DNA of 15,336 nucleotides from a virus. Lineage: Duplodnaviria; Heunggongvirae; Uroviricota; Caudoviricetes. The position numbers and the translations under genes were made by a program. The notes under the pieces were generated by a model. The model was not told the DNA's origin. It worked only from the letters and a program-made list of their open reading frames with translations, and ran no database searches. The stretch spans positions 1 to 15,336 of the IMG/VR virus record IMGVR_UViG_3300028585_000002; one strand, given 5' to 3'. Shown here one piece after another: positions 1 to 15,336 of this stretch; the stretch's first letter is position 1, and each line of letters opens with the position of its first letter.

Positions 1-537
1 AGCAATGAAAATCTGAAGGCACAAGAAGCGACGGCGCAAGCCGTTGAGACCCCGAAGCTGGTCCATCAAATCGTGTTCGACGCGGACGGTGTCGGTTCCT
101 CGATCTTCCAGGCCCTCGGCCTGCGCGAAGGCGCGTTCGCCGTTCCGACCGACCTCAAGAGCGACATCGCAGCCCGCTTCAAGCTGGTTGACGGCGCTGT
201 CACGCTGACCTCGGAAGACGCCGACGATGACTGGCGCCAAGCCCAGATCGAAGCCGAAGCCAAGGAAGCTGCGGAACGGGCGAACAGCCGTCGTGCAAAC
301 ATGAAGCTGACTCCGCTGGAGTTCTACGGCGTGTTCACCCAGAAGGAGCTGGCGGGCATCTACATGGCGGCCAAAGAGGACGTGAACGCGCAGATCTACC
401 TGGATCAGCTCAAGGTGGCTCAGGACGTAACCCTGTCCGATCCGCGCACGCAGCACAACCTGTTCAGCCTGGTTGCCGCTGGCCTGCTGACGCAAGAGCG
501 CGCCGAGGCGATCATTCGCGGCGAAGTCCCGGCATAA
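1..537 (+). CDS. Tail-fibre-associated/assembly-like protein, 5' partial
   Basis: Frame 1 is open from base 1 (SNENLKAQ...). C-terminal LTPLEF..FT..E...D..L.DP.T....LV..GLLT.ERA..I pattern is typical of small proteins next to phage tail fibres. Confidence 0.6.
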   Translation, partial: SNENLKAQEATAQAVETPKLVHQIVFDADGVGSSIFQALGLREGAFAVPTDLKSDIAARFKLVDGAVTLTSEDADDDWRQAQIEAEAKEAAERANSRRANMKLTPLEFYGVFTQKELAGIYMAAKEDVNAQIYLDQLKVAQDVTLSDPRTQHNLFSLVAAGLLTQERAEAIIRGEVPA

Positions 538-570
538 GGCTCGGCCGGCTCTTATGCCGGTCTTACCAAT

Positions 571-612
571 AGGCGGTCATCGGGGTGGAAAGTCCTTGGT
601 GGCCGCCTTTTT
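571..612 (+). terminator. Rho-independent terminator-like hairpin
   Basis: AGGCGGTCATCGGGG ... CCTTGGTGGCCGCCT stem (several G-T wobbles) followed by TTTTT. Confidence 0.6.
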
Positions 613-624
613 CATAGGTGCTGC

Positions 625-909
625 ATGAACCGTTTTTCCCTTCTTCTTATCTTCCTGTTGTGCCAGGTGGCCAGCGCAGTTTCTGCCCTCTGGATGCTAG
701 TCGCGATCCTGGTCGGCTCCGATCGGGCATGGCGCCTGGCGATCTCTTACGACCAGCTGGCCAACACCGCGACCGGCGGTAGCGAGGACGAGACGATCAG
801 CAGCCGCGCGAACCGGGCCAGGCTCGAGGGCCGGCGCTGGGGGTGCGTGCTGTGCAAGCTGCTCGACAAGTTTGAAAAGGACCACTGCCCGAAATCGGCA
901 GGAGTATAA
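625..909 (+). CDS. Phage hypothetical membrane protein
   Basis: Hydrophobic N-terminus, DQLAN..GG..DETISSR and C..LC......HC motifs familiar from small phage proteins; AGGTG SD upstream. Confidence 0.8.
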   Translation: MNRFSLLLIFLLCQVASAVSALWMLVAILVGSDRAWRLAISYDQLANTATGGSEDETISSRANRARLEGRRWGCVLCKLLDKFEKDHCPKSAGV

Positions 910-932
910 GCGGCTGTTGCGGGAATTCACAA

Positions 933-976
933 TAAGTCACCAGTGACTTGATTTGTCAACTGGTGGCTGTTAAACT
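933..976 (+). promoter_or_regulatory. Palindromic operator AAGTCAC-CA-GTGACTT overlapping a sigma70-like promoter for the lysis cassette
   Basis: Perfect 7-2-7 palindrome 934-949; TTGATT (948-953), 17-bp spacer, TGn-TAAACT (971-976). Confidence 0.7.
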
Positions 977-1014
977 CCCGCAACGCCTTTGCAAGCGAAT
1001 GACGAAGGATCGAC

Positions 1015-1368
1015 ATGATTGACGACCAACAAGGATTTGAAATGCCGAACCAGAGTGTATTCGACCAGCGTATGGACTCGATGGCCGACGAGCTGCGCGA
1101 AATGCGTAGCGCCGTTTCCAAAGTAGCCGAGGCCTTGACCAAGCTCTCCGTCCTGGAGGAGCGCAACGCCACCACCAACCAGGCCATCGAGAAGATCGCC
1201 CAGCGCCAGGACAAGGTCGAGGATAAGATCTCCTCGCTCGAGCTGGAGCAGGTGAAGTTCGAATCGAACGCGAAGGGCATGGCAACTGCTGTCAAGCTGT
1301 TCTGGGGCGTCTTCGGCGGCGGCGCGCTGTACATCGGCTCCGAGCTGATCAAGCAGTTCGCTCACTGA
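1015..1368 (+). CDS. Coiled-coil protein with C-terminal TM segment (holin-associated/XhlA-like)
   Basis: Heptad-rich body, C-terminal hydrophobic LFWGVFGGGALYIG, directly upstream of endolysin, AAGGA SD. Confidence 0.75.
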   Translation: MIDDQQGFEMPNQSVFDQRMDSMADELREMRSAVSKVAEALTKLSVLEERNATTNQAIEKIAQRQDKVEDKISSLELEQVKFESNAKGMATAVKLFWGVFGGGALYIGSELIKQFAH

Positions 1369-1369
1369 T

Positions 1370-2005
1370 ATGGCTCTGACACCTGCCCAGTTTAGCGCCG
1401 CAATGCCGCGTGCAGGCGCGCACTTTCTCCCCTGGATCAACAAAGCCATCGAGCTGGCCGATGCAAGCACGCGCAACCGGCTTCACATGTTCCTGGCAAC
1501 GGTCGCTCACGAGTCGAGCGATCTGTGCCGCCTCGAGGAGAACCTGAACTACTCGGCCGAGGGCCTTTGCAAGACCTGGCCGTCGCGCTTTACAGCTCAG
1601 TCATCGGTGACTTACGCGCGCAATCCGCAGAAGATCGCCAACAAGGTCTATGCGCTGCGCGGCGGTAACGGTGACGAGAAATCGGGCGACGGCTGGCTCT
1701 ACCGCGGCGCCGGCGCCATCCAGCTGACCTTCAAGGCCAACCAGGTGGCATGCGCCAAGTTCTTCGGCAAAAAGCCCGAGGAGATCGGCGCCTGGCTGCG
1801 CACCCCGGAAGGGGCATGCCTGTCGGCCGCCTGGTTCTGGAAGACCCGCGGCTGCAACGACTTTGCCGATCACGACGACTTTGACGGCGTGTGCGACATC
1901 GTCAACATCGGCCGCAAGACGACCGCGCAAGGCGACGCCATCGGCTTCGTTGACCGCCTGGTGCGCCTGAAGGCTATCCGCCTCGCCCTGAAGACCACAA
2001 CCTGA
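1370..2005 (+). CDS. Endolysin, glycoside hydrolase family 19
   Basis: FLATVAHESSDLCRLEENLNYS and GDGWLYRGAGAIQLT match GH19 endolysin motifs; both catalytic Glu present. Confidence 0.92.
   Translation: MALTPAQFSAAMPRAGAHFLPWINKAIELADASTRNRLHMFLATVAHESSDLCRLEENLNYSAEGLCKTWPSRFTAQSSVTYARNPQKIANKVYALRGGNGDEKSGDGWLYRGAGAIQLTFKANQVACAKFFGKKPEEIGAWLRTPEGACLSAAWFWKTRGCNDFADHDDFDGVCDIVNIGRKTTAQGDAIGFVDRLVRLKAIRLALKTTT
1597..1614 (-). promoter_or_regulatory. Intragenic copy of the operator motif (TAAGTCACCGATGACTGA on - strand)
   Basis: Matches TAAGTCACC-R-N-TGA, inside the endolysin CDS. Confidence 0.55.
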
Positions 2006-2015
2006 AGGAATAGAC

Positions 2016-2234
2016 ATGTTCGACAAACTGCGGGGCGCGCTGCGCTCCAAAACCATCTGGTTCAACGCTGTCGCCATCCCGGTGCTGGCCACGATCTTCG
2101 ACCAGGCCCAGGCCAACCTCGGCGCGCTGGCGCCGTACCTGGCTGACGACAAGATGAAGGTGCTCGCCGTGGCCTCGATCGGCGGCAACATCATCCTGCG
2201 CGCGCTGGTGACGGAACGCCTGGAGCACAAATGA
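2016..2234 (+). CDS. Putative holin
   Basis: 72 aa, two hydrophobic segments, RSKTIWFN and N..LR..T..L..K pattern, between endolysin and spanin; AAGGA SD. Confidence 0.75.
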   Translation: MFDKLRGALRSKTIWFNAVAIPVLATIFDQAQANLGALAPYLADDKMKVLAVASIGGNIILRALVTERLEHK

Positions 2235-2698
2235 CCTGGCGCGTCTGCACCCTGCTCGTCGCCGCGGCCCTGACCGTCGGCTTCAGCGTGGGCTACCACG
2301 TCAAGGACCAGGCGACCCAGGCGGCTGTCGTGAAGCAGACCACCGCGGCGGTCAAGCAGGCCGGCGCCAACATCGCCGAATCGGCGGTTCGCAGCCAACA
2401 AGTCGAGGCAGCGATCCAGCAAACCGACTCCAACATCGACCAGCTCAAAGCGGCCGCACAGGCGCGCCTGCAGAAGGGGAAGACCCATGAAACAACCATC
2501 CGTGTCGGCGGCAACGCTGGGCATGACAACGGTGCAGGTCGCATCGCCACCGCCACCACCACCGAGCAACCAGGACCGGCTGGTGACGCTGCTGACGATT
2601 GCGGCAGCGATCGCCGCCTTGATTTTGGCACTGTGCGGCTGCTCAACCGCGCCCGCGACGAAGGCGCCGTGGAGTCCGCCCCAGGCAGCGCTGGTTAA
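2231..2698 (+). CDS. Rz: i-spanin (Rz-like)
   Basis: N-terminal TM anchor, Ala/Gln-rich coiled coil, overlaps a downstream lipoprotein gene; ATGA overlap with holin stop. Confidence 0.75.
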   Translation: MTWRVCTLLVAAALTVGFSVGYHVKDQATQAAVVKQTTAAVKQAGANIAESAVRSQQVEAAIQQTDSNIDQLKAAAQARLQKGKTHETTIRVGGNAGHDNGAGRIATATTTEQPGPAGDAADDCGSDRRLDFGTVRLLNRARDEGAVESAPGSAG

Positions 2699-2882
2699 GT
2701 CCGAGCCGCTGCCGAAGCTGGCCGACGACCCTGACCAGGCCGATGACGCCCAGTCCACGATCGGCATCGAGGAGCTGGTCGCCGACAACTTCAACCTGGT
2801 CAAGGCGTACAAGCGCCTGGCCAAGCGGCACGACGAGCTGGTCGACGCCGTGATGCAGCGGCTGCAGATCCAGGCAAAATGA
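2487..2882 (+). CDS. Rz1: o-spanin lipoprotein (Rz1-like); alternative start GTG 2583
   Basis: Hydrophobic stretch plus lipobox LCGC (Cys codon 2640), Pro-rich mature N-terminus, overlaps Rz in another frame. Confidence 0.75.
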   Translation: MKQPSVSAATLGMTTVQVASPPPPPPSNQDRLVTLLTIAAAIAALILALCGCSTAPATKAPWSPPQAALVKSEPLPKLADDPDQADDAQSTIGIEELVADNFNLVKAYKRLAKRHDELVDAVMQRLQIQAK

Positions 2883-3132
2883 TCCACCTGACGATGACCC
2901 CGACGTTTCCAGCGTTCGCGTGTACGACGAGCCTGGAGGCTACAACGCCAGGCGGCCGTACCTTGCTATTTTCAAGGTGACGCACCTGACCGACACGACT
3001 GCCTATATCCATAGCGCAGTGGGGAAAATCGACCGCGAGACACGGACCAAGGCGCTCAACCTCTTGCGAGAGAAAGGCATCAAGACCGTGATGCTCGAGC
3101 GCCATGGACGCATAAAAACCGTGGAGCTGTGA
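2879..3132 (+). CDS. Small phage hypothetical protein; apparent 1-nt frameshift at CCCC 2898-2901 (intact ORF from GTG 2920)
   Basis: ATG 2879 overlaps the spanin stop and reads MIHLTMT; the long ORF frame reads PDVSSVRVYDEPGG; one extra C would join them. Confidence 0.65.
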
Positions 3133-3152
3133 TCAAGCAGAGTGGACTCAAG

Positions 3153-3440
3153 TCAAAGGCCCCCTCCCGGATTGCAGAGCCTGCAGCTATGTGGTCTTGG
3201 GCGGAAACCGCATCTCTCGGTCACATAAACTCCATTGTCCGGATCGGATTCCCGTTCACAGTGCCGAGGTCTGTCGTCGCGACGTGGCAGCGCTGCGTCT
3301 AAAATGTCGTGATCGGCTTCAGCTTCGATTCCCGCTATGTGATGATTAACCGCATCATCAATCTCCGCTTGGTCGAAGTCCGCTTTTTGTGGCTTTGACG
3401 GCTGTTCCCGTTCTTGGGGCTGGGTCTTGTCTTCGCTCAT
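3153..3440 (-). CDS. Hypothetical protein, moron-like (95 aa, acidic N-half, Cys-containing C-terminus)
   Basis: MSEDKTQPQ... open to 3153 in a lower-GC gap otherwise free of genes; TGc-TAAATT extended -10 on - strand at 3484-3476; SD weak. Confidence 0.4.
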   Translation of the reverse strand: MSEDKTQPQEREQPSKPQKADFDQAEIDDAVNHHIAGIEAEADHDILDAALPRRDDRPRHCERESDPDNGVYVTERCGFRPRPHSCRLCNPGGGL

Positions 3441-3549
3441 TGGATGCTTTCGTGCTTCACGGTGTCGGGAATACCAATTTAGCAATACTGACATACCTTC
3501 AGTCCATACAGACATCGAGGAGAAGATTTTTTCGAAAGCATATAGAAGA

Positions 3550-3571
3550 TAAGTCACCGCTGAGGTATATT
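3550..3571 (+). promoter_or_regulatory. Operator motif TAAGTCACCGCTGA followed by -10-like TATATT upstream of phoH
   Basis: Motif starts 3550, TATATT 3566-3571. Confidence 0.65.
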
Positions 3572-3611
3572 CAAGGCTGGTCCACCCCTCAATCAGCAAG
3601 GAAGCGGAAAT

Positions 3612-4379
3612 ATGCCTAAGCACCAGACCTCCAACCGCAGCGAACAGCGCAAAGCCAAACGCAGCGGTGCCCCACAGGACCAGCACTTCCTCGAGGCCAT
3701 GCCTCCATCCCGCCCGATTAAGGCGCCCCCATTCCAACCCAAGAACGACAAGCAGCGACGCTATGCAGCGTCCATGCGCGCGGGTGGTGTCACGTTCGGT
3801 CTCGGCCCCGCTGGCACCGGCAAAACCTACGTAGCGGGCACCCTTGCAGCTGAAGCGCTCATGAGCAAGACCGTCGAGAAGATCATCCTGACCCGACCTG
3901 CCGTGGAAGCAGGCGGCGAGAACCTGGGCTTCCTGCCTGGCGAGAAGGAAGACAAGTTCGATCCGTACTTCGACCCATTCCGTGATGTGCTCGAGGAGCG
4001 CCTGGGCAAGTCGTTCGTGGAATACCTGATCAAGGAAGGCCGGATCAAGTGCGAGCCGTTCGCCTACATGCGCGGCAAGACCTTCAAGAACGCCTTCGTG
4101 ATCCTGGACGAAGCCCAGAACGCCACCACGGCGCAGTTCAAGCTGTTCCTGACCCGCGTTGGCCAGGACGCGATCGTGGTCATCGACGGCGACGAGAGCC
4201 AGGCTGACATCCGGGAATCGGGCCTGATCGACACGGCCAACCGCCTGATGCATATCCCGAGCGTGAAGGTGGTCATGTTTGCCAAGGCAGACATCGTGCG
4301 CAGCGGCTTCGTGCAGGAGGTGGTGGAGGCATTCGAAGCGCCGGCGCCGGATCGCGTCAATCCGATCCTGCAGCGCTAA
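3612..4379 (+). CDS. phoH: PhoH-like ATPase
   Basis: GPAGTGKT Walker A, RPAVEAG, LGFLPG, YMRGKTF, ILDEAQN, DGDESQ.D motifs. Confidence 0.95.
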   Translation: MPKHQTSNRSEQRKAKRSGAPQDQHFLEAMPPSRPIKAPPFQPKNDKQRRYAASMRAGGVTFGLGPAGTGKTYVAGTLAAEALMSKTVEKIILTRPAVEAGGENLGFLPGEKEDKFDPYFDPFRDVLEERLGKSFVEYLIKEGRIKCEPFAYMRGKTFKNAFVILDEAQNATTAQFKLFLTRVGQDAIVVIDGDESQADIRESGLIDTANRLMHIPSVKVVMFAKADIVRSGFVQEVVEAFEAPAPDRVNPILQR

Positions 4380-4390
4380 ACCGCGGCACC

Positions 4391-4437
4391 GGCCCCAGGT
4401 TCCAGTAAGGACTTGGGGCTGAAATAGACTTGGGGCC
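4391..4437. repeat. Inverted plus direct repeat: GGCCCCAGGT and two copies of GACTTGGGGC (4410-4419, 4427-4436)
   Basis: Read directly; the 5' arm can pair with either downstream copy. Confidence 0.75.
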
Positions 4438-4446
4438 GCCACTCCC

Positions 4447-4510
4447 TTTCTATAAGTTTTAAGTATTATTACAAAACATCATTTAAGTATTTAAGGTTTT
4501 AAAGAATATA
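4447..4510. other. Extremely AT-rich tract with TTTAAGTATT direct repeats; candidate origin or promoter region
   Basis: 10 G/C in 64 nt; TTTAAGTATT at 4458-4467 and 4482-4491; sits at the head of the replication genes. Confidence 0.5.
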
Positions 4511-5235
4511 TGGAAACCGAGGACACCCCCAACCCGATCGAAGCCACGCACGGCGCCTTCTTCGGCAGCGGCCTAGACTTCTTCACCTGTGAGGCCCTGG
4601 CCATCGCCAAGATCGACCGCAAGAGCCTGGCGCTCGAGCCGGCCCTGTACGAGCGCAAGTGGTTCGACTACCGGCGCCTGCACCCGACGATGGCCACCTA
4701 CCTGCTCGCGCACCACTTCAATACTGCATACGGGCGCTTGATGGGCGAGGCGTTCGACCACAAGAAACGCTTCATGGCGGCCTTCAAGGGGAAAGACGTG
4801 ATGGCCGCGCGCGAGGTCAAGTCCTTCTGGAAGCTGCGCCAGAAGATCGACGAGGCCGGCATCCGGTACGACTTCTTCTGCCGCAAGGCGATGGAGTGGT
4901 GCATGATCAACGGCTGGCGCCAGCCGCCCCGCCCCTCTCACGTCAATACCAACGACGAGATGAACATCTGGATCCTCAACCAGTGGGACGAGGAGCGGCG
5001 CGCAAAGATCCAGTGGGCACAAGACAAGCATTTCGCGGCATCGAGCTGGTGCGGTGCGCCCGACCAGGAGGCGTACGAGCAATACCTGCTGGAGCAGATC
5101 ATGTCCAAACCATTGCCGCAGTACGCCCTTCATGCTGCGCTTTATGTATATGACGCGCTGCGCATCGAAACGGCGATCGCGAACCTGCCGGCGACGGCGG
5201 TTGATGCGGCTATTCAATTTGAGCGCGACAGATAA
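4510..5235 (+). CDS. Phage hypothetical protein at the head of the replication block
   Basis: 241-aa ORF with the same codon bias as neighbours, aromatic-rich (KWFDYRRLHP); no recognisable catalytic motif. Confidence 0.8.
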   Translation: METEDTPNPIEATHGAFFGSGLDFFTCEALAIAKIDRKSLALEPALYERKWFDYRRLHPTMATYLLAHHFNTAYGRLMGEAFDHKKRFMAAFKGKDVMAAREVKSFWKLRQKIDEAGIRYDFFCRKAMEWCMINGWRQPPRPSHVNTNDEMNIWILNQWDEERRAKIQWAQDKHFAASSWCGAPDQEAYEQYLLEQIMSKPLPQYALHAALYVYDALRIETAIANLPATAVDAAIQFERDR

Positions 5236-5254
5236 GTCACCACTGAACTATAAT
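5233..5254 (+). promoter_or_regulatory. Operator motif TAAGTCACCACTGA plus perfect TATAAT -10
   Basis: Motif begins at the TAA stop of the upstream gene; TATAAT 5249-5254; GCGACA 18 bp upstream. Confidence 0.75.
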
Positions 5255-5309
5255 GGTCGGGTCAGCGCATCAAGTGATGCGCATCCAACCCCAATACCAG
5301 GAGAAATAC

Positions 5310-5777
5310 ATGACTTTCGCACAAGACACCACTGACGCAGTTCGCCGCGACCAGCTCGAGGCGGCTCGCAGCATGACCGACGACACCGACGCGCCGCGCC
5401 GCGCGACCCTGAGCCTGGCCAGCAGCCGCCCGCGCCCAACCGCCGGCAGCCGTTCGGGCATCGGCGCGCCCGAGAAGAAGAAGAACGTGCTCAAGGGGCA
5501 CGAAGCCTTCCTGAAGGCGCTGGAGATGAACGGTGCGCGCATCGAAGTCGAGAAGTGCGACGGCACGACCTACCGCGGCATCCTCAAGCACACCGACAAG
5601 TATTCGATCACGCTGAACGTGACCGAGCGCGGCGACGTGCAGGAAGACGGCGTGTTTGACCCGGTGCCGGCGCGTGACCGCGTCATCTTCAAGCACGACA
5701 TCAGCGAGTTCTCGGCGCTGACCCACCGCCCGAACGTCGCACCAGCGCCAGCACCGACCATCGAAGGAAACGCATAA
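5310..5777 (+). CDS. hfq: Hfq-like (Sm-fold) RNA-binding protein with N-terminal extension
   Basis: FLKAL-x13-G-x4-G-x5-DKY.I.L is colinear with the Hfq Sm1 motif and IFKHDIS with YKHAIS (Sm2); AGGAG SD before ATG 5310. Confidence 0.82.
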   Translation: MTFAQDTTDAVRRDQLEAARSMTDDTDAPRRATLSLASSRPRPTAGSRSGIGAPEKKKNVLKGHEAFLKALEMNGARIEVEKCDGTTYRGILKHTDKYSITLNVTERGDVQEDGVFDPVPARDRVIFKHDISEFSALTHRPNVAPAPAPTIEGNA

Positions 5778-7243
5778 TGACCGAAGCAGTCGCAACCGCA
5801 GCAGAAGAGGCGGTCGTGGCGATGGTAGGTGCTGCAATGAGCGGTGCCGGCTACGCCCCGCCCCCGTCGCCACACGCGGCACCAGAAGTGCTGTTCGGCG
5901 ACGAGAAGTTCGAATTCGACGCGGAGTTCCAGAGCAAGGTGGCCACGCACTCGATGCGTAACCTGGACTTCCTGCGCAAGATTGCCCACCTGCTCAAGCC
6001 GGACTACTTCGAAAACGCCGGTGAGGCGGCGATGGTCAACATCGCACTACGCTACTACCGCCAGTACGGCTCGGTGCCGACCGTCCTGGCCGCGCGTGAG
6101 TTCTTCGCCGAAGACATCCGCAACAAGGTCGTGCGCAGCGACATCCGGCCGGCAGCGATGGAGGCATTCAAGACTTGCTTCCAGCCGGCGGCGGACCTGT
6201 CTGATGGCCAGTACATCGCCGAGCGGGTCGCGGAGTTCGCGCGCCACCAGGCTATTTCGGCCACGATCTTGCAGTCGGTCGACCTGTTGGAGAAGAAGCA
6301 GTTCGACAAGATCGCCAAGAACGTCAAGGCAGCGTGCGACGTTGGCATCAACACCGACGGCGAAGAGTACGACTACTACGAGCGCATCGCTGAGCGTACC
6401 GCCGAGCGCGCTGACCGCCTGGCGGGCAAGCTCCCACCGACCGGGATCACCACCGGCCACCGGATGATCGACGACCTGCTCTATCACAAGGGCTGGGGTC
6501 GCAAGGAGCTGTCCGTCATCCTCGGTGGTGCGAAGGCCGGTAAGACCACGTTCCTGATCAACGCTGCGAAGGCGGCGTCGCTGGCCGGCTTCAACGTCCT
6601 CTACGTCACCTGCGAAGTGGCCAGCCGCATCATCGCCGAGCGTCTTGATGCCTCGATGACGGACACCGAGATCAAGAATCTCATGGCCAAGATGAAGGAG
6701 GTCGAGGGCAAGCTGCGGGCGACCATGCCGCGCGCGGGCAAGATCAAGTTCGCCGAGTACCCTTCGGGCACGCTCACACCGTCCATGCTGCGCGGGCTGA
6801 TCGAGTCGTATAAGTCGCCACGCCTGAACCCGGATGGCACCGTGCGCGAGCCGGTCCAGTTCGACATGATCGTGGTCGACTATGCCGACATTATGGCGCC
6901 GGACTTCCGCACCCAGGATGCAATCGAGAACAGCAAGGGCATCTACCTGGCGCTGCGCGCGATCGCGATGGAAGAGAACGTCGCGATGCTGTCGGCAACG
7001 CAGACCAACCGGGAAGGCATGAAGTCGACCGTGGCCACCGCAACGCACGTCGCGGACGACATCAACAAGGTCCGGACGGTCGACATCATGATCTCGATCA
7101 ACATCACGGACGAGGAGCGCGCGAACGGCGAGGCGCGTCTGTACTTCGCCGCGTCTCGTAACCAGGCGGGCGGCTTCACGATCTTCATCAAGCAGGAGCT
7201 GGAAAAAATGAAGTTCATCGCAAGCATCATCCGGGTGGAGTAA
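5777..7243 (+). CDS. dnaB: Replicative SF4 (DnaB/gp41-like) DNA helicase
   Basis: GWGRKELSVILGGAKAGKT Walker A, YVTCE, IVVDYAD, ATQTNR motifs. Confidence 0.93.
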   Translation: MTEAVATAAEEAVVAMVGAAMSGAGYAPPPSPHAAPEVLFGDEKFEFDAEFQSKVATHSMRNLDFLRKIAHLLKPDYFENAGEAAMVNIALRYYRQYGSVPTVLAAREFFAEDIRNKVVRSDIRPAAMEAFKTCFQPAADLSDGQYIAERVAEFARHQAISATILQSVDLLEKKQFDKIAKNVKAACDVGINTDGEEYDYYERIAERTAERADRLAGKLPPTGITTGHRMIDDLLYHKGWGRKELSVILGGAKAGKTTFLINAAKAASLAGFNVLYVTCEVASRIIAERLDASMTDTEIKNLMAKMKEVEGKLRATMPRAGKIKFAEYPSGTLTPSMLRGLIESYKSPRLNPDGTVREPVQFDMIVVDYADIMAPDFRTQDAIENSKGIYLALRAIAMEENVAMLSATQTNREGMKSTVATATHVADDINKVRTVDIMISINITDEERANGEARLYFAASRNQAGGFTIFIKQELEKMKFIASIIRVE

Positions 7244-8349
7244 TGAGCAACCACGCCAGCTATTCCCGCGACGAGGAACTGCAGGAGGCGATCGACGCCA
7301 TCGACATTGAGTCGTGGCTCGACGCCGAGGGCGTGCGCTACCGGCATACCCGCGGCGCACGCGGAGCGCAGCTGAACGTCAAGGAGTGCCCTTGCTGCGG
7401 CAGTTCCAGCTACAAGGTGTACCTGAACGCGGAAACCGGGCTGGGGAACTGCTTTCATGGCGACTGCGAGACCAAGTTCAATAAGTGGAAGTTCATCAGC
7501 GCCCAACTGGGCCTGGCTGCGCGGGACACCATCGAGCACATCAAGTCCTACGCGCGCGAACAGGGCTGGCGGCCGCCGCGCAAGCGCGCGATCGCCGTGA
7601 ACAACCGCGGCGAACTGGTGCTGCCCGAGTCGATCCCTATGCCGCACGGTGGTCGGAACCTGAAATACCTGGACAACCGGAACATCAGCGGCGACATCGC
7701 GGCGTATTTTGAGCTGCGCTACTCGCACCGGGGCCACTTCGATTACCTGAGCGAAGAAGGCCACCCGATGCGCCAGGACTACGCCAGCCGGATCATCATC
7801 CCGATCTACGATCTGGAGGGCGAACTGGTGTCGTTCCAGGGGCGAGACATCACCGGCAGCGCGGACAAGAAGTACCTGTTCCCGCCTGGCTTCTCGTCGA
7901 CCGGCAGCCACCTGTACAACGGCTACAACGCCATCGGCGTCGAGCATGTCGTCATCGGGGAAGGCGTGTTCGACGTGGCCGGCATCAAGGTCGCGTTCGA
8001 CCAGGAGGTGACGCTGCGCGACACGGTGCCGATCGGCTCGTTCGGCAAGCACCTGTCGCACGGTGATGCGGACAGCCAGCTGACCAAGCTGACGCTGCTC
8101 AAGGAGAAGGGCCTGAAGATCGTCACGTTCATGTGGGACGGCGAGCGCCAGGCGATCCGTGACGCGGTCAAGGCAGCGCAAATGGTGGCCAGCATCGGCA
8201 TCAGCGCGCGCGTAGCGCTGCTCCCAAAGGGCAAAGACCCTAATGAGGCGGCGCCCGAAGAAGTCAGGAACGCATTCTGGAAAGCGACCCCGATCAACAA
8301 CGCCAGCGCCACCAAGTTGTTGCTGATCGCCGAGCGGGATTACGGTTAG
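7243..8349 (+). CDS. DNA primase (Zn finger plus Toprim)
   Basis: CPCCG...GNCFHGDC zinc finger, FQGRDI, VIGEGVFD and FMWDGE Toprim motifs; coupled to helicase (TAATG). Confidence 0.9.
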   Translation: MSNHASYSRDEELQEAIDAIDIESWLDAEGVRYRHTRGARGAQLNVKECPCCGSSSYKVYLNAETGLGNCFHGDCETKFNKWKFISAQLGLAARDTIEHIKSYAREQGWRPPRKRAIAVNNRGELVLPESIPMPHGGRNLKYLDNRNISGDIAAYFELRYSHRGHFDYLSEEGHPMRQDYASRIIIPIYDLEGELVSFQGRDITGSADKKYLFPPGFSSTGSHLYNGYNAIGVEHVVIGEGVFDVAGIKVAFDQEVTLRDTVPIGSFGKHLSHGDADSQLTKLTLLKEKGLKIVTFMWDGERQAIRDAVKAAQMVASIGISARVALLPKGKDPNEAAPEEVRNAFWKATPINNASATKLLLIAERDYG

Positions 8350-8363
8350 GACGGCAACGCGGA

Positions 8364-8407
8364 TAAGTCACCGGTGAGCACTCTATCCGGTGTCTCATCG
8401 GTATGAT
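8364..8407 (+). promoter_or_regulatory. Operator motif TAAGTCACCGGTGA with TATGAT -10 starting 38 bp after motif start
   Basis: Motif 8364-8377, TATGAT 8402-8407, upstream of the WGR-ligase operon. Confidence 0.65.
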
Positions 8408-8443
8408 TCATCTATCGACAGCGCACAGTAGCGCGAGGGAAAA

Positions 8444-8896
8444 ATGACTTTTAGCATCGAAACAGAGTACTTGGAGCACAAGGGTGGGACTAAGTTCTAC
8501 GAGACCGTCCTGATCAAGGAAGACGACGGGCCGGGCCTGTTGATCAAGCGTTGGGGCGCCATCGCCCTCAAGAACGGCGGTGGCAAGATCAAGTACGACC
8601 GCGGCATGCACAGCATCTGCACGACCGAGCGCGACAAGATCCTGCGCGAGAAGCGCAGCGCCAAGGGCGGCTACGAGAACGCCGTCAAGAGCGGCGCACT
8701 GCACACCTGGCACGGCAACAGCATCACGGCCGCGCAGCTGGCGGGCATGAGCAAGCACCACTACAACGCCGACGTTGCAGCTTACCTGATGGACTACTTC
8801 GGGATGAACGGCACCGCGGAGGTGGTCAACGAGGCGCCGCCGGCGCGCGAACCCGAGAAGCCCATCGAGCGCGGCGAAACGTGGGGGAGCTGGTGA
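8444..8896 (+). CDS. WGR-domain-like protein
   Basis: GTKFYE...IKRWG...G..K...KILREK...KGGY follows the WGR-domain pattern. Confidence 0.7.
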   Translation: MTFSIETEYLEHKGGTKFYETVLIKEDDGPGLLIKRWGAIALKNGGGKIKYDRGMHSICTTERDKILREKRSAKGGYENAVKSGALHTWHGNSITAAQLAGMSKHHYNADVAAYLMDYFGMNGTAEVVNEAPPAREPEKPIERGETWGSW

Positions 8897-9123
8897 TGGA
8901 CACGACCCGCACCTACACCACGATGGAAACCATCGAGCGCAAGGCCATCGAGAGCCTCCTGGGGCGCATGACGCCAACGATGGGGCCGATCATCAAGCGC
9001 CAGCTGATTCGCAGCCTGGCCAACGGTATCGCGATCATGGCAGCGCAGAAGAAAGAAATCGAAGAACTGGAACAGTACGCCGAACAGGTCGCCGCCAAAG
9101 GCAGTGACTGGGGCGCTTGGTAA
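8896..9123 (+). CDS. Hypothetical protein (75 aa)
   Basis: TGATG overlap with previous gene, GGGGAG SD, MDTTRTY...WGAW. Confidence 0.75.
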   Translation: MDTTRTYTTMETIERKAIESLLGRMTPTMGPIIKRQLIRSLANGIAIMAAQKKEIEELEQYAEQVAAKGSDWGAW

Positions 9124-9137
9124 ATGAAGGAGCGAAC

Positions 9138-9812
9138 ATGAAAAACAAACCGATCACGCACGACACCCCGTTCCCGCCAGAGGCATCGGCCGGTTCGAAC
9201 AATGCCTACTACCTGCACCACTGCGCGGCGCTCGAGCGCGGGCCATCGTACGCCGCATGCCTTTCACGGCTGCACGACATCGACGGCGGCCGCAACAATG
9301 AGCGCACGTCCGAATGCGAAAAGACCCTGCGCGAAGGCCGCTGCGCCGCCGACGGCATGCGTGAGCAAGAGAAGCTGGCCGGCCAGGCGCTGTTCTACTT
9401 CCCGCGCCTGAAAAACCCGCACCTGCCGGTGTCGGTGGCGGGCGACTTCGGCGTGCTGATTACGAACCACACGGACCCTGCGCTGATCCCGGCGCAACCG
9501 AAGCCCTTCGGCACCCGCACCACCAGCTTCAGCAAGCCCACAGCGCCCGCCAAGACGCTCGACGACCACCTGACAGCAGCGACGACCAGTGGCTTCGCAG
9601 AAGCGATCACCGCGGCTGTAGCAGAGGCCGCCGACGCACCGGCGCCAGCACCCACGCCGGCGCCAGCACCGACGCCAAAGCCGACGCCAGCACCGGCCCC
9701 GAAGGTCGTCACCGCCGGCCCGCCGCCCAAGCCCGCGCGCCCGCCGATGCTGGCCGGCGAAACCCCTTTGCAATACGCCCGCCGCCTGGCGGCAACACCT
9801 ACCCAACCGTAA
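9138..9812 (+). CDS. Hypothetical protein, Cys-rich N-domain plus Pro/Ala linker
   Basis: AAGGAG SD before ATG 9138; four Cys in the N-half; (PA/PT)n linker. Confidence 0.8.
   Translation: MKNKPITHDTPFPPEASAGSNNAYYLHHCAALERGPSYAACLSRLHDIDGGRNNERTSECEKTLREGRCAADGMREQEKLAGQALFYFPRLKNPHLPVSVAGDFGVLITNHTDPALIPAQPKPFGTRTTSFSKPTAPAKTLDDHLTAATTSGFAEAITAAVAEAADAPAPAPTPAPAPTPKPTPAPAPKVVTAGPPPKPARPPMLAGETPLQYARRLAATPTQP
9639..9674 (+). repeat. Tandem 18-bp coding repeat CCGGCGCCAGCACC(C/G)ACG
   Basis: Two near-identical copies plus degenerate ones, encoding PAPAPT. Confidence 0.8.
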
Positions 9813-9821
9813 CGAGAAACC

Positions 9822-11225
9822 ATGAACTCCAACGAAATTTTCGACCTGATCGAACAGGTCGCGGCAACCCCCGGCAAGAACGACAAGATTGCGCTGCTCA
9901 AGACCCACGCTGGCGATGAAACGCTCAAGCGCGTGCTGGCTGCGGCCTACAACCCGCTCATCAGCTACGGCATTCGCAAAGTGCCCGAGCGCAAAGCGAA
10001 CGACGACCCTGCAGGCTGGGAGTTCGACGAGGACACCTTCACGCTGCTGAGCAACATGGCCGCGCGCAAGCTGACCGGCGGGGCCATGCTCGAGGAGGTC
10101 CAGAAGCAGGTGAACGTGATGTCGGCCAAGAGCACCGACCTGCTGCGCCGGGTCATGCTCAAGAACATGCGTGCCGGCTTCGACGAGGGCACCGTGGGCA
10201 AGGTGTGGCCAGGCCTGCTGCCGGTCTTCCCGTACATGCGCTGCTGCCTGCCGAAGGACGCGAAGCTGGAAGGCTGGAACTGGGCCGAAGGTCAGATCAG
10301 CCAGGAGAAGGCAGACGGCATGTTCATGAACGTGAACCACGAGGCCGGCGGCACCGTGTCGATCTACAGCCGCGCCGGCTCGATGTTCCCGATGGAGAAG
10401 TTCGAATCGCTGGCGGTCGCGGTGCGCGGCACGCTGGACGAAGACACGCAAAGCCACGGTGAATGCCTGGTGCTGCGCGATGGCGTCGTGCTGCCGCGCG
10501 AGGTCGGCAATGGCGTGCTCAACAGCGTGCTCAAGGGCGGCGACTTCGAAGCGAACGAGCGCCCGATCTTCCTGGTCTGGGATCAGATTCCCCTGTCGGC
10601 CGTGAAGGCGAAGGGCAAGTACGAAGTCAAGCAGGTCGAGCGCCTGTCGGGCCTGATCCGTCAGCTGCAGCGCAGTGTGGGCGGCGTGGTCCAGCTGGTG
10701 CCCACTCGGATCGTGCGCTCGCTGGCTGAAGCGTACCTGCATTACACCGAGCTGCTGGCGCAAGGCAAGGAAGGCACCATTCTCAAGAAGCGCGACGCCA
10801 TCTGGAAGGACGGCACCAGCAAGGAGCAGGTCAAGCTCAAGCTGGAGTTCGAACTGGACATGGAAGTGCAAGGCGTGGTGCTCGGTCGTGACGACACGAA
10901 GAACGCCGGCCGGGCCGGGTCGTTGAAGTGCGCGACGAAGTGCGGGCTGCTGGAAGTGGACGTGGCCATCAAGGGCGAGGCGATGCGCGACGACGTGGAT
11001 GCGAACCCGGACAACTGGATCGGCGCGATCATGCCGGTGACGGCGAACATGATCATGCGCCCTTCGGAATCGAACAAGCTGCACTCGCTGTTCCTGCCGC
11101 GCTTCACGCAGAGCACCCCGCGCGCCGACAAGACCGAAGCGGACACCCTGGCGCGCGCATTCGCAATCGAAGATGCGGCCAAGCTGGGCGAGAAGATCGC
11201 TGCTGAATGGAAGGAAGCGGCGTGA
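9822..11225 (+). CDS. lig: ATP-dependent DNA ligase (T4-like)
   Basis: Motif I QEKADG, HGEC, FLVWD, EGTILK, KLK and a C-terminal OB region (SLFLPRF). Confidence 0.95.
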   Translation: MNSNEIFDLIEQVAATPGKNDKIALLKTHAGDETLKRVLAAAYNPLISYGIRKVPERKANDDPAGWEFDEDTFTLLSNMAARKLTGGAMLEEVQKQVNVMSAKSTDLLRRVMLKNMRAGFDEGTVGKVWPGLLPVFPYMRCCLPKDAKLEGWNWAEGQISQEKADGMFMNVNHEAGGTVSIYSRAGSMFPMEKFESLAVAVRGTLDEDTQSHGECLVLRDGVVLPREVGNGVLNSVLKGGDFEANERPIFLVWDQIPLSAVKAKGKYEVKQVERLSGLIRQLQRSVGGVVQLVPTRIVRSLAEAYLHYTELLAQGKEGTILKKRDAIWKDGTSKEQVKLKLEFELDMEVQGVVLGRDDTKNAGRAGSLKCATKCGLLEVDVAIKGEAMRDDVDANPDNWIGAIMPVTANMIMRPSESNKLHSLFLPRFTQSTPRADKTEADTLARAFAIEDAAKLGEKIAAEWKEAA

Positions 11226-11572
11226 CGATCTATCGCTTCGAAGTAGAAATCACTGGCGCGCCGCGCGCCACTGCAGACGACACCCGCGACGAGACCGCCG
11301 GCGCGATCGAAGACTTCATCGAGAGCCATCGCCCGGCCGGCGCCATCAGTGTCGGCGAGCTGGTCGAGATCGAAACGATGCAGCTGATCGGCATCAAGGA
11401 AGGCCGCGAGGTCGATCTCGGCGACATGCCGCTGTCGCCCGAAATGAAGATGCGCGAGATCGCTCGCCAGTACGGCAACCCGGACGATGAAGACGACTAC
11501 CCCGCCGGCGTCGCGATCGGCGCCATGCAAGACCTGATCACCTGGATGAAGCAACAAGGAAAACTGAAATGA
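11222..11572 (+). CDS. Acidic hypothetical protein
   Basis: GTGA overlap with ligase stop, AAGGA SD; 24 D/E in 116 aa. Confidence 0.75.
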   Translation: MTIYRFEVEITGAPRATADDTRDETAGAIEDFIESHRPAGAISVGELVEIETMQLIGIKEGREVDLGDMPLSPEMKMREIARQYGNPDDEDDYPAGVAIGAMQDLITWMKQQGKLK

Positions 11573-11961
11573 AATTCACCGTACCAATCAAGATCGACGC
11601 CGAGAATGAGGAAGCAGCGCTGCGCGTGCGCAACATGATCGAGCAGGAAATCGGCGCCGCCTTCGAACTTGACTCGCAGGACATCAAGGGCGTGGAGACC
11701 GCGCACACTGGCGACCTGGAGCTGGAGGAAGACCCTCACGACAAGCCGGCCATCGAAGCAGCGCGCACGAAGCGCGGACAAGAAGGCGAGATCGAGATCG
11801 ACGACAACGCGAAAGTCTCGTACAGCGCCGATGGCGGCGCCTACGTCGCAGCATGGGTCTGGGTCAACGACAACGAGATCGCCGACGCCGGCGACAGCAA
11901 CCCGGAGACGGGCGCCGGCATGGAAGAAGCAGTCGAAAGCGAAGGTGGCCACTGTGACTGA
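11569..11961 (+). CDS. Highly acidic hypothetical protein
   Basis: ATGA overlap, AAGGA SD; EIEIDDNA.VS...GAYV.AWVWV motif; 33 D/E in 130 aa. Confidence 0.8.
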   Translation: MKFTVPIKIDAENEEAALRVRNMIEQEIGAAFELDSQDIKGVETAHTGDLELEEDPHDKPAIEAARTKRGQEGEIEIDDNAKVSYSADGGAYVAAWVWVNDNEIADAGDSNPETGAGMEEAVESEGGHCD

Positions 11962-12139
11962 CGCACAAGTTCAAGCGCTGCGCGCGACGATGCCCTGGAC
12001 CGAGCGGGCCTACTCCAACGGCCGGCACACCATCATCCAGGTGATCGACAACCAGGGGCGCGAAGTGCCGCTGCTCACGCTGGTGCCGTTCATGGTCGCC
12101 ATCAGTCACAAGCTGGTCGTAAAGGAGAAGGTCGAATGA
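11954..12139 (+). CDS. Hypothetical protein (61 aa)
   Basis: GTG start with AAGGTGG SD; fills the gap between overlapping neighbours. Confidence 0.65.
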   Translation: MTDAQVQALRATMPWTERAYSNGRHTIIQVIDNQGREVPLLTLVPFMVAISHKLVVKEKVE

Positions 12140-12372
12140 ATCTCTGGCGCCACTACAAGGGTGACATCTACGAAGTCCTGACGTTCGACGCGAAGAACGA
12201 AAATGGCTGCCTGACCGTGATCTACAAGCCGTGCTACCACGGCGCCGAAGCGCCGATGTTCACCCAGCCGCGCACGCGCTGGTTTGAACAGGTCGATCAC
12301 GGTGGAGTAAAGGTCGACCGCTTCACTCCGGTCAACCTGGCTGACCTGGCCACAGCGCCAGCACCGCAATAG
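12136..12372 (+). CDS. DUF1653-like protein
   Basis: WRHYKG..YEV......V.Y....P...F.E.V...G...RF pattern. Confidence 0.75.
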   Translation: MNLWRHYKGDIYEVLTFDAKNENGCLTVIYKPCYHGAEAPMFTQPRTRWFEQVDHGGVKVDRFTPVNLADLATAPAPQ

Positions 12373-12396
12373 GCCCTGTAAACGGTTTTAACATTC

Positions 12397-12405
12397 TGCT
12401 ATGCT
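12397..12405 (+). promoter_or_regulatory. Extended -10 promoter TGcTATGCT
   Basis: In the intergenic gap before GGAGG SD and ATG 12424. Confidence 0.5.
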
Positions 12406-12423
12406 TGGGCGCTGGAGGAAACC

Positions 12424-13086
12424 ATGCCATCGCTCAAGCACCTCATCGCCGGCACTGCCGGCGTTTCTCATTTATCGCAATCCCCACTTTGGGACCAGGA
12501 CGTGGCCACAATCACGCCGTCCCAGCTCATCGCATTCGTCGCCAAGCATAAGCTGGCCTGCCGGGCCGACGAAGCGGAATCCAGTGTCGACATCGCCCTC
12601 ACGCAGATCACGGAAGCGGTCAAGCGCGGCGAAATCCCACGCCCGCCTATGCTCGACTACCGCAGGCCCAACTTCATCGTCATGACCCAGACCGAGCTAC
12701 GGCGCGGCCTGGCGTTCATGCGACCCGAGCAGGCGTACGCCATCATGTTCGCGTTGGAGACCGGGCTGTCATCGCAAGAGGTGGCGCGCCTGAAGCACAT
12801 CGACCTGCACAGCCTGCGGCGCGAGCGCCGATTGTCCGACCTGGCCAACGCCTGTCTCGAGCGCATGCCTCGCCACATCGTCTCGCCGTACGTGTTCTGG
12901 CGTCCGATCCAGAAGAATGGCCGCACCGTCACCGCATCAACGCCGATCATGGACCTGGACGAAGCCGTGTTCGACGCCTTCGGGTTGGTGTGGGGCGAGT
13001 TGGAGCAAGGCTACGCGAATTTGATCTATACGCCGGACGAAGACGAGGTCGACGGCCCTCTTTTCGATCTGATGTTTGGCCGTTGA
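12424..13086 (+). CDS. Degenerate tyrosine-recombinase-fold protein, predicted inactive
   Basis: FALETGLSSQEVARL resembles box I with Ser at the catalytic Arg; ITPSQLIAFV resembles the core-binding helix; no HxxR. Confidence 0.6.
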   Translation: MPSLKHLIAGTAGVSHLSQSPLWDQDVATITPSQLIAFVAKHKLACRADEAESSVDIALTQITEAVKRGEIPRPPMLDYRRPNFIVMTQTELRRGLAFMRPEQAYAIMFALETGLSSQEVARLKHIDLHSLRRERRLSDLANACLERMPRHIVSPYVFWRPIQKNGRTVTASTPIMDLDEAVFDAFGLVWGELEQGYANLIYTPDEDEVDGPLFDLMFGR

Positions 13087-13175
13087 CGCGAGTCTGTTGG
13101 GATGCAACAATGGCCTGTTCATAAGTCGTTGATTATCCACAAGAGACAGCGGATTGCAAAGCCGTTGACGCGAGT
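13079..13175 (+). repeat. 15-bp direct repeats GCCGTTGACGCGAGT (13079-13093, 13161-13175)
   Basis: Exact duplicate, starts 82 bp apart. Confidence 0.9.
13133..13141 (+). promoter_or_regulatory. Perfect DnaA-box consensus TTATCCACA
   Basis: 9/9 match, single copy; function unproven. Confidence 0.35.
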
Positions 13176-13194
13176 TTAGCCAGGGAGCGGCCCA

Positions 13195-14256
13195 ATGCGG
13201 GTAGAGAAAGACCTCAATTCCATCGTCGCGCGCCTCGAGGCGATGCTCGGGAGCAAGCCAGCGCCGGCGCCGGTCAGCCCACACAAAACGCTCTCCAAGC
13301 TCATTCGGGCCTACCTGAAAACGGTGGCCGTGTCAAAGTCGGACAAGCTGCTGCTGAACACGCTGCTCGATCGCATCGGCGAGGTGGAAACGGCGGCGCT
13401 GAACTACGAGTGGACCGAACGGTGGATCGAGAACATGAAAGTGGTCGAGAACCTGAACCCGTCCACCATCCGTCATTACGTGGGCGCGCTCGGGCGCTGT
13501 GTTGACTGGGCATTTCGGAAAGGGGTGTTGACTACCCCGCAGAACCCCATTAGACAGCTGCCAAAGAGCTATGCCCAGTACACCGACAGGGATGCAGACG
13601 TGGCCCGCTTAGCGAACCCCGATTTCGTCGAGCAAGAGGATGACGAGCGGGACCGCAGGCTCGAGCACGGTGAGGAAGAGAAGATCCGCTGGATTCTCGA
13701 TCGGAACAAACCGGAAGGGCGCCAGCGGCCTATGGTGCTTGCTCACCAAGGCGCACTGGAACTGCTGTTTGACTTGGCGCTTGAAACGGCCATGAGGATG
13801 CGTGAGATATACACGCTGACCTTGGACCAGGTGGACTTCGAACGCCGCACGATCTTCCTGGACCGGACCAAGAATGGTGACAAGCGACAGGTGCCCATGT
13901 CGAGCACGGCGGCCGAGCGCGTCAACGCCTACCTGGCGCACGTAGCTGCCGGCGAACGGGGAATGGGTGAGCATGCCTTCCCAGGAGGTCGGCTGTTGCC
14001 ATGGTGGGACGGGAAGGCCAATTCGCTGACCAGGACGACCGCGATGCTAAGTCGCCAGTTCGGGCGGATTTTCGACGCGGCCGGCTGTCCGGACCTGCGC
14101 TTTCACGACCTGCGCCACGAAGCGACAAGCCGATTCTTCGAACGAACCAAACTGCAGGACTTCGAAGTCATGAAAATCACAGGTCACAGCTCGACGAGGA
14201 TGCTGCGGCGCTACAGCAATATCCGAGGAAGTACGCTCGCCGACAAGCTTTGGTAG
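13195..14256 (+). CDS. int: Tyrosine recombinase/integrase
   Basis: Full catalytic set: ETAMR (R), RTKNG (K), HDLRH (HxxR), TGH (H), RRY (Y); AGGGAG SD. Confidence 0.95.
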   Translation: MRVEKDLNSIVARLEAMLGSKPAPAPVSPHKTLSKLIRAYLKTVAVSKSDKLLLNTLLDRIGEVETAALNYEWTERWIENMKVVENLNPSTIRHYVGALGRCVDWAFRKGVLTTPQNPIRQLPKSYAQYTDRDADVARLANPDFVEQEDDERDRRLEHGEEEKIRWILDRNKPEGRQRPMVLAHQGALELLFDLALETAMRMREIYTLTLDQVDFERRTIFLDRTKNGDKRQVPMSSTAAERVNAYLAHVAAGERGMGEHAFPGGRLLPWWDGKANSLTRTTAMLSRQFGRIFDAAGCPDLRFHDLRHEATSRFFERTKLQDFEVMKITGHSSTRMLRRYSNIRGSTLADKLW

Positions 14257-14308
14257 CTGCAAATTGCAAACCCAAATCATTATCCATGAGTGGTAAGGAT
14301 CATGAGTA

Positions 14309-15295: not shown

Positions 15296-15298
15296 GAA

Positions 15299-15336
15299 TC
15301 AGACCTCAGCCATTGCACGGTTTTTGGCTCGCTCCA
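15299..15336 (-). CDS. Probable 3' end of an upstream operon partner (...ERAKNRAMAEV*)
   Basis: Only 11 codons visible; stop lies 3 nt before the HEPN ATG. Confidence 0.3.
   Translation of the reverse strand, partial: ERAKNRAMAEV

Follow-up and report, generated by a model that had tools for sequence, protein, structure and literature searches.

An 18-bp palindrome sharing bases with promoter hexamers throughout a phage genome is the probable operator of one phage-encoded XRE repressor

Lambdoid repressors act at two operator clusters and possess an S24 autocleavage domain. At the right operator of lambda, OR1 and OR2 repress PR, and the palindromic sites lie over the −10 box, over the −35 box and, in one case, near −42. 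The C1 repressor of P1 binds its operators as a monomer and has a fold unrelated to the helix-turn-helix (HTH) of the 434 type. In P1 there are 22 C1 operators, which are asymmetric 17-mers (PMC8546580). For the immunity repressor of cluster A mycobacteriophages (L5 gp71, TipsytheTRex), each genome has over 20 sites, which are found mainly in short gaps between genes and often overlap stop codons; these are asymmetric 13-mers, which a monomer binds through two domains and which work in one orientation relative to transcription (PMC9283540). Furthermore, KorA of the IncP plasmids RK2/RP4 recognises a 12-bp symmetric operator at seven promoters (PMC2665229). Here an 18-bp palindrome, TAAGTCAC-NN-GTGACTTA, is described in a stretch of 15,336 nucleotides of viral DNA (IMG/VR record IMGVR_UViG_3300028585_000002, positions 1 to 15,336; in the following, the window). 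The window makes up the first 15.3 kb of a whole viral genome of 111,592 bp with terminal repeats and 60.8 % GC, referred to as G000.

A preceding sequence-only reading had noticed the core motif TAAGTCACCRNTGA at 933, 3550, 5233 and 8364 on the plus strand and at 1614 on the minus strand. All five copies proved exact when the window was scanned again, and none is expected from 200 shuffles; if all copies are read together, the full unit is the 18-bp palindrome. The same reading had called for a count over the whole genome, and its idea of a genome-wide regulon is borne out by 43 copies with at least 12 of 16 matches, compared with 1–2 expected by chance. Thirty-nine of them are located outside predicted coding sequence in a genome with a coding fraction of 0.865, and the first TAA of the operator is often the stop codon of the gene before, for example at 5233. 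An exact-pattern scan of IMG/VR revealed the same palindrome in many contigs of about 94–118 kb; nine such relatives taken whole (GC 44–67 %) contain 26–50 sites each, 0–9 being expected by chance. A literature search found no paper describing a regulon of this palindrome: queries with the motif sequence gave only unrelated primer matches, and the literature on two elements discussed below, phage RHEph10 and the plasmid-prophage pLM21S1, does not mention the repeat. The explanation that fits best is that the palindrome is the operator of one phage-encoded dimeric XRE protein, P_B, which would silence nearly all lytic units, and we assign to it a probability of about 60 %.

If so, the arrangement resembles P1 C1 in several respects, namely a phage-plasmid of about 100 kb, one repressor without a RecA-cleavable domain and many scattered operators. 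It differs from P1 in its 18-bp palindrome, in a candidate reader with an HTH of the 434 type, in about twice the number of sites and in bases common to the −10 and −35 boxes. As in L5, where the terms operators and stoperators are used, some sites lie in promoters and others do not; here, however, they are mostly fused to promoter hexamers and conserved in sequence over a much wider family, and since the site is symmetric it has no orientation, unlike that of L5. More than 15 sites spread over the genome and mostly intergenic (43 sites, 39 intergenic) agree with dispersed silencing, but an asymmetric site of the kind bound by monomeric P1 C1 or L5 gp71 was not found, the site being a palindrome. 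KorA and KorB are likewise dimeric HTH repressors that use short palindromes at fixed promoter positions of one replicon, and G000 also encodes TrfA. Among PDB sequences P_B matches a KorA-domain protein best, but the match is weak (E 0.6) and indicates no significant relationship. Moreover, RK2 has two or more proteins for the different positions, whereas in this phage one palindrome serves both, at about 43 sites. With the CI repressors of lambda and 434 the P_B model shares the HTH fold; instead of two operator clusters and an S24 domain, there are about 43 dispersed promoters and no S24. New compared with the known systems are the symmetric operator, the 434-type candidate reader, the sharing of bases with the hexamers and the broad conservation of specificity.

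The position of the sites relative to promoters was counted in ten genomes, that is G000 and the nine relatives. Among oriented sites, −10-like hexamers start most often 16 nt after the motif start (n=60), followed by offsets 15 (n=26), 22 (n=15) and 38 (n=15), and a TTGACA-like hexamer stands at offset 15 in 29 oriented sites. Two layouts can be distinguished. In class A the final TA of the operator doubles as the first TA of the −10 box, which places the dyad at about −19.5. In class B the operator ends in TTG instead of TTA, and this TTG opens the −35 box, so that the dyad lies at about −41.5; a 17-bp spacer (26 of 30) and a TAnnnT box follow. Because the palindrome supplies TA or TTG in both directions, orientation was used as control. 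A −10 box at offset 16 was found in 49 of 208 TA-ended flanks facing a gene but in 11 of 257 others (p 5e-10), and the class B layout in 28 of 380 gene-facing flanks but in 2 of 403 others (p 2e-7). The fusion with −10 or −35 is thus strongly preferred only in the orientation leading into a gene. The −35 boxes of class B are TTGACA (9 of 47), TTGACT or TTGATT, and the class B promoters of G000 match the consensus in 8–10 of 12 positions. Class A promoters have a TTG −35 in 22 of 86 cases, and words containing TTG are enriched directly upstream of class A sites.

The two exact registers postulated in the sequence-only reading therefore remain as strong modes at dyads of about −19.5 and −41.5 across the ten genomes, but not as a strict rule: G000 has about 13 class A sites, 7–9 class B sites, five with the −10 at offsets 18–22 and five just downstream of a −10. 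The difference of 22 bp, taken there for two helical turns, is no design of its own. It results from promoter geometry, as it equals (15+6+17) minus 16, and one promoter (G000 58014/58036, TTGTAG-17-TATCAT) holds both layouts 22 bp apart. The register is conserved by orthologous gene. Class A precedes the genes for SSB (8/8 genomes), a UvsW-like helicase (6/6), a portal-like protein (4/4) and a tail-region protein (3/3), and in four relatives a class A site lies in the promoter of P_B itself; class B precedes cobS (6/7), terS/terL (6/6) and the major head gene (4/5). Each promoter has hence long kept its layout.

Several further interpretations of the registers were tried and mostly abandoned. 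A split into early and late genes is plausible in G000 alone, where class A is found at 3.5–51 kb and the genes for lysis, terS, capsid and tail have class B, but it is ruled out by the orthologues, in which the portal-like and tail-region genes are class A. The word GTCC.CATAGA ahead of several class A sites of G000 was considered as a −35 box of a phage sigma factor, but is not common to the relatives, in which words with TTG prevail. An extended −10 (TGn) does not apply, since the right arm has its TG 2 nt away from the position required, nor does spacer activation of the MerR type, as spacers measure 17–18 bp wherever a −35 exists. The orthologue of the mcp promoter in the operator-free phage nickie contains no sigma-70-like promoter and is not comparable.

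The symmetry of the site may reflect DNA or RNA. It is very improbable that the palindrome acts as a termination, processing or stability hairpin or that it is the recognition element of the phage's own sigma factor, although some copies stand directly before intrinsic terminators (28442, 88386) and a sigma-70 region-2 protein is encoded at G000 21059–21832. Among 887 arm pairs deviating from the consensus, 783 are changed in one arm, so that 88 % of the deviations disrupt pairing, and double changes that restore pairing (51) do not outnumber non-complementary ones (53). In addition, the RNA folds of the five window copies are no better than those of shuffled sequences (z −1.4 to +0.4), and on the arm statistics and the folds the hairpin or terminator interpretation was rejected. 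Class A and B sites are located upstream of the predicted start and thus would not be transcribed from that promoter, and sigma factors do not read one palindrome in two different registers. Independent half-sites with a fixed 2-bp centre rather point to a two-fold symmetric protein dimer as the reader.

Only two genes of G000 are HTH_3-like. One of them, P_B (G000 16556–17011, minus strand), encodes 151 amino acids with an HTH of the Cro/CI type and lies 1.2 kb past the end of the window, in line with the earlier statement that the window itself holds no candidate regulator gene. The other, P_A (57402–57815, minus strand), is a paralogue. Each of ten relatives has exactly one homologue, always of the P_B type (31–54 % identity), and a P_B profile detected homologues at 53 further viral loci, 50 of which contain 2–14 sites within about 20 kb. 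P_B and the palindrome co-occur in more than 60 genomes and loci. Neither is present in Pseudomonas phage nickie and Stenotrophomonas phage BUCTxx99, despite common replication and head genes. In Rhizobium phage RHEph10, gp041 is a 32 %-identical homologue, and a variant palindrome, TCA(G/A)TCAA-TA-TTGA..., is present in the genome about 40 times. Together with the census of the palindrome, this co-occurrence supports the proposal of one dimer-type regulator with a genome-wide regulon.

The putative recognition helix, K46-PNIITMIKQG-56, and the following K/T/K/L/P are near-invariant in 72 homologues with an overall identity of 34–83 %. Where they differ, the helix change M52L (seven loci, three helix variants) accompanies A for C at operator position 6, and alanine at residue 58 (RHEph10, L196) goes with A at operator position 8, methionine (L184, L197) with G. 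Helix changes thus seem to track operator changes, which is suggestive only. P_B scores below the Pfam cut-offs (HTH_3 22.4 bits, cut-off 23; HTH_19 22.5, cut-off 30.2), and many of its homologues have a precomputed PF01381 or PF12844. The AlphaFold2 (AF2) model (pLDDT 82) shows a five-helix N-terminal domain and an all-helical C-terminal half. It superimposes on 434 Cro with 1.7 Å over 63 residues (TM 0.80), on the 434 repressor with 1.7 Å over 61 residues and on P22 c2 with 1.5 Å over 61 residues, the Foldseek E-values of these fold matches being only about 1e-2. Full-length fold matches to Stl and DdrO were poor (root-mean-square deviation 9–14 Å) and not used. Judged from these sequence and model comparisons, P_B is the best candidate binder of the palindrome, which it would bind as a dimer like the 434 repressor. 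That another protein binds it, be it P_A, a different phage DNA-binding protein or a conserved host factor, seems improbable. Any clade-specific gene would show the same phyletic pattern, and P_A resembles P_B across the HTH and adjoins a double operator; but P_A has no orthologue in the relatives, where the single match is of the P_B type, and departs from the P_B family at the invariant helix positions K54 and Q55. A single host factor would not suit hosts of such diversity, and it is in P_B that helix changes are accompanied by operator changes.

From the geometry a common mode of action can be proposed. A P_B dimer would bind the 18-bp palindrome, which is merged with sigma-70-type promoters via common bases. 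In class A, where the operator end forms the first two bases of the −10, it would fill the spacer; in class B the terminal TTG would provide the first three bases of the −35. As a bound dimer would compete with RNA polymerase at both positions, P_B is expected to repress. Acting at about 43 sites, it would shut down almost all lytic transcription units together, in the window those for lysis, phoH, Hfq-like/helicase/primase and WGR/ligase, leave the plasmid replication module free and limit its own synthesis.

The sequence-only reading had proposed instead that the regulator represses one promoter class and activates the other. This could not be supported, because the registers do not sort the genes by function: terminase and major head genes use −41.5, the portal-like, tail-region, SSB, phoH and P_B genes −19.5. 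Lambda CI bound at OR2 activates PRM from the −41.5 geometry, and in analogy to CI and to the controller (C) proteins of restriction-modification systems a bifunctional P_B would repress at −19.5 and activate at −41.5 via sigma region 4. We consider this doubtful, and equally tentative is the corollary that the register would encode the response of each gene to P_B, shut at −19.5 and recruiting polymerase at −41.5. In favour of it, the exact −41.5 geometry is conserved by orthologous gene (cobS, terS/terL, major head), the fold of P_B is like those of 434 repressor and C.Esp1396I, and the pair 58014/58036 resembles a switch that is first activated and then repressed. Its best case is the site at 8364, and acidic residues on helix 2 of the protein are conserved. 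A dyad near −41.5 abutting or overlapping the −35, as in class II activation, is found at 933 and at 28 gene-facing sites of the family; however, the weak −35 box of such promoters is not seen in class B, except at 8364. With near-consensus hexamers, 17-bp spacers and TTGACA itself in 9 of 47, class B promoters look like promoters that fire unaided and are unlike typical class II targets. Furthermore, the late genes are divided between the registers (portal-like 4/4 and tail-region 3/3 class A), which would give an incoherent late programme, and a P_B that holds class A off in the plasmid state would at the same time turn lysis and capsid genes on. Repression at both registers is therefore favoured, since the layouts do not sort genes, class B is consensus-like and activation would express lysis and capsid functions.

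As to the state that P_B may maintain, the gene directly downstream of P_A codes for TrfA, and G000 further encodes a ParB_N protein, a PIN toxin and a TetR protein; the presence of the TrfA, ParB and PIN genes leads us to read P_B as global repressor of a phage-plasmid. The genomes of G000 and RHEph10 are collinear, and the latter is related to the Sinorhizobium plasmid-prophage pLM21S1, an element not induced by mitomycin C (PMC4447125, PMC7969092). Homologues of P_B exist on 223 PLSDB plasmids, 154 from Acinetobacter, 43 from Escherichia and others including Cupriavidus. Two of these plasmids were examined, one of 106 kb from Cupriavidus and one of 107 kb from A. baumannii (circular plasmids of this group measure 105–111 kb). 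In phoH, Hfq, DnaB, primase and ligase the two plasmids are collinear with the window; they bear TCAGTCAG..CTGACTGA-type sites, and in both the HTH gene adjoins parA, trfA or repB on the strand opposite the phage genes. The P_A-trfA unit of G000 (56295–57815, minus strand) has a promoter, TTGACC-17-TATAGT, in which the palindrome is absent, as expected of an operator that shuts off lytic genes but leaves replication genes active. As this promoter ends 6 nt before the ATG, the P_A-trfA mRNA may be leaderless, like that of lambda cI from PRM.

It is unlikely that the same operator and P_B serve as a regulator of lytic-cycle timing or copy number while another factor holds lysogeny. This would agree with an operator specificity kept over GC contents of 40–67 %, unlike fast-diverging immunity systems, with the isolation of RHEph10 as a plaque-forming phage (PMC4447125) and with the existence of the TetR gene and of the P_A paralogue. 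However, almost every lytic unit, early and late, has a site, P_B would regulate its own gene, and on the plasmid-borne relatives its gene keeps company with parA, trfA or repB, opposite to the phage genes.

Some observations weigh against P_B as a global repressor. About 10 of the 43 sites of G000 have no recognisable promoter, among them 1597 and the terminator-adjacent 28442 and 88386. Class A promoters often lack a recognisable −35 and might need help to fire, and at 8364 a missing −35 and a dyad at −41.5 form the layout of an activated promoter. Helix 2 of the P_B family conserves the acidic residues E/D37 and E41, which could touch sigma, and the phage has a sigma factor of its own. No match to the S24 autocleavage domain (PF00717) was found anywhere in G000. 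For an immunity repressor it is unusual that the operator sequence is conserved over widely differing hosts. P_A, 39 % identical to P_B across the HTH, adjoins a double operator and could bind similar sites, and the covariation of helix and operator is confounded by clade and for this reason only suggestive.

To this group of phage-plasmids, for which no control circuit has been described, belong plasmids of about 105–111 kb that many clinical isolates of Acinetobacter baumannii carry. If P_B is the repressor, one small protein and one 18-bp palindrome at about 40 promoters would keep a 110-kb virus silent as a plasmid. Operator and recognition helix are near-frozen over hosts with 40–67 % GC, which suggests that the high connectivity of the regulon itself locks the specificity; such frozen specificity predicts cross-repression among distant relatives. 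The sites can in addition serve as a promoter map for these elements. A response code of two registers, if true, would span phage-plasmids of Acinetobacter, Cupriavidus, Rhizobium and many uncultured hosts.

Within the window, the four gene units named in the sequence-only reading agree with the annotation, and its −10 boxes were confirmed at exactly 16 nt (TATATT at 3566, TATAAT at 5249) and 38 nt (TAAACT at 971, TATGAT at 8402) from the motif start. The first operator copy (933..950; 15/16 to the palindrome) is class B with its dyad at about −41.5. It had been called a perfect palindrome, which is right for the 7-bp arms but not for the non-symmetric centre CA, and it terminates in G instead of A. 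Its last TTG begins a −35 box, TTGATT at 948–953, which had been overlooked. With a 17-bp spacer and the −10 box TAAACT at 971–976 it forms the sigma-70-like promoter of the lysis unit (948..976, plus strand), which precedes 1015–1368 and the endolysin gene at 1370–2005; the orthologue in G003 is likewise class B. The copy at 1597..1614 (14/16) lies within the endolysin gene and has promoter-like hexamers on neither side. By our own arithmetic, about 0.03 sites of this quality are expected per genome by chance, and the copy may serve as a roadblock, or it may form a loop with the 933 site at a distance of 664 bp.

Operator 3550..3567 (13/16) is class A, dyad at about −19.5, and its last TA starts the −10 box TATATT (3566..3571, plus strand) of phoH (3612–4379), whose orthologues in G006 and G009 are class A too. 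Operator 5233..5250 (13/16), also class A, has as its first TAA the stop codon of the gene at 4510–5235. The −10 box TATAAT (5249..5254, plus strand) belongs to the promoter of the genes for the Hfq-like protein, the DnaB helicase and the primase (5253/5310–8349), and in G002 and G008 the orthologues likewise belong to class A. The most likely start codon of the Hfq-like gene is the ATG at 5310, after the ribosome-binding site AGGAGA, and not position 5253. In the 5' leader of this gene (window 5255–5309), a perfect hairpin, GCGCATCA-AG-TGATGCGC, separates the −10 box from the ribosome-binding site.

The copy at 8364..8381 (12/16) is in the class B register; its left arm and GTGA are intact, its outer right arm is degenerate. 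The −10 box TATGAT (8402..8407, plus strand) serves the unit of the WGR gene (8444–8896) and the ATP-dependent ligase gene (9822–11225). No −35 is found in this promoter, the slot at 8379–8384 reading CACTCT. In G006 the orthologous promoter of WGR has a complete class B site, TTGTTT-17-TAAAAT. Spacer and −10 of the WGR unit are similar to those of the cobS promoter at G000 19757, and both promoters (window 8358–8407 and G000 19751–19800) have in common the flank (c/g)ggaTAAGTCAC, tatccgg and TCATCGGTAT up to the −10. As the likeness extends beyond the operator, it points to the duplication of a promoter cassette or to an additional binding site.

In cobS itself an intragenic operator-like site (G000 20599–20616; 14/16) is present at the same place in 5 of 10 genomes. 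It corresponds to about amino acids 270–285, coding KSLVIK, stands 460 nt ahead of the sigma gene and may be a coding coincidence or a roadblock. The sigma gene (G000 21059–21832, plus strand) lies within the cobS operon behind the class B site 19757 and encodes region 2 only (phrog_351 4.5e-15; Sigma70_r2 6e-6); a profile search for Sigma70_r4 was negative. The class A promoter at G000 17229 leads into a leader of about 390 nt (region 17229–17640) with an open reading frame (ORF) of 63 codons and a terminator-like hairpin. After this leader, directly before cobT, a second promoter follows (TTGCTC-17-TATACT) with the operator at about +2 to +19. At G000 88386–88440 and 28442–28500, just behind the highly expressed genes for major head and SSB, an operator with a TAnnAT box runs directly into an intrinsic terminator hairpin; in G002, G003, G006 and G009 the major head gene is followed by the same arrangement. 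A start from this −10 would land at the foot of the hairpin.

Towards its end the window holds an AT-rich island (14000–15336; GC 36–47 % in a 61 % genome) with an ORF of 328 amino acids (14309–15295, minus strand) that has no match in Pfam or PHROG. This ORF sits between integrase and regulator, where RHEph10 has repC, and may be an imported or a replication-related gene. The neighbouring tyrosine recombinase (13195–14256, plus strand; Phage_integrase 2.8e-22) has no homologue in the 11 relatives compared and is hence an accessory gene of G000, which could act as integrase or as plasmid dimer resolvase.

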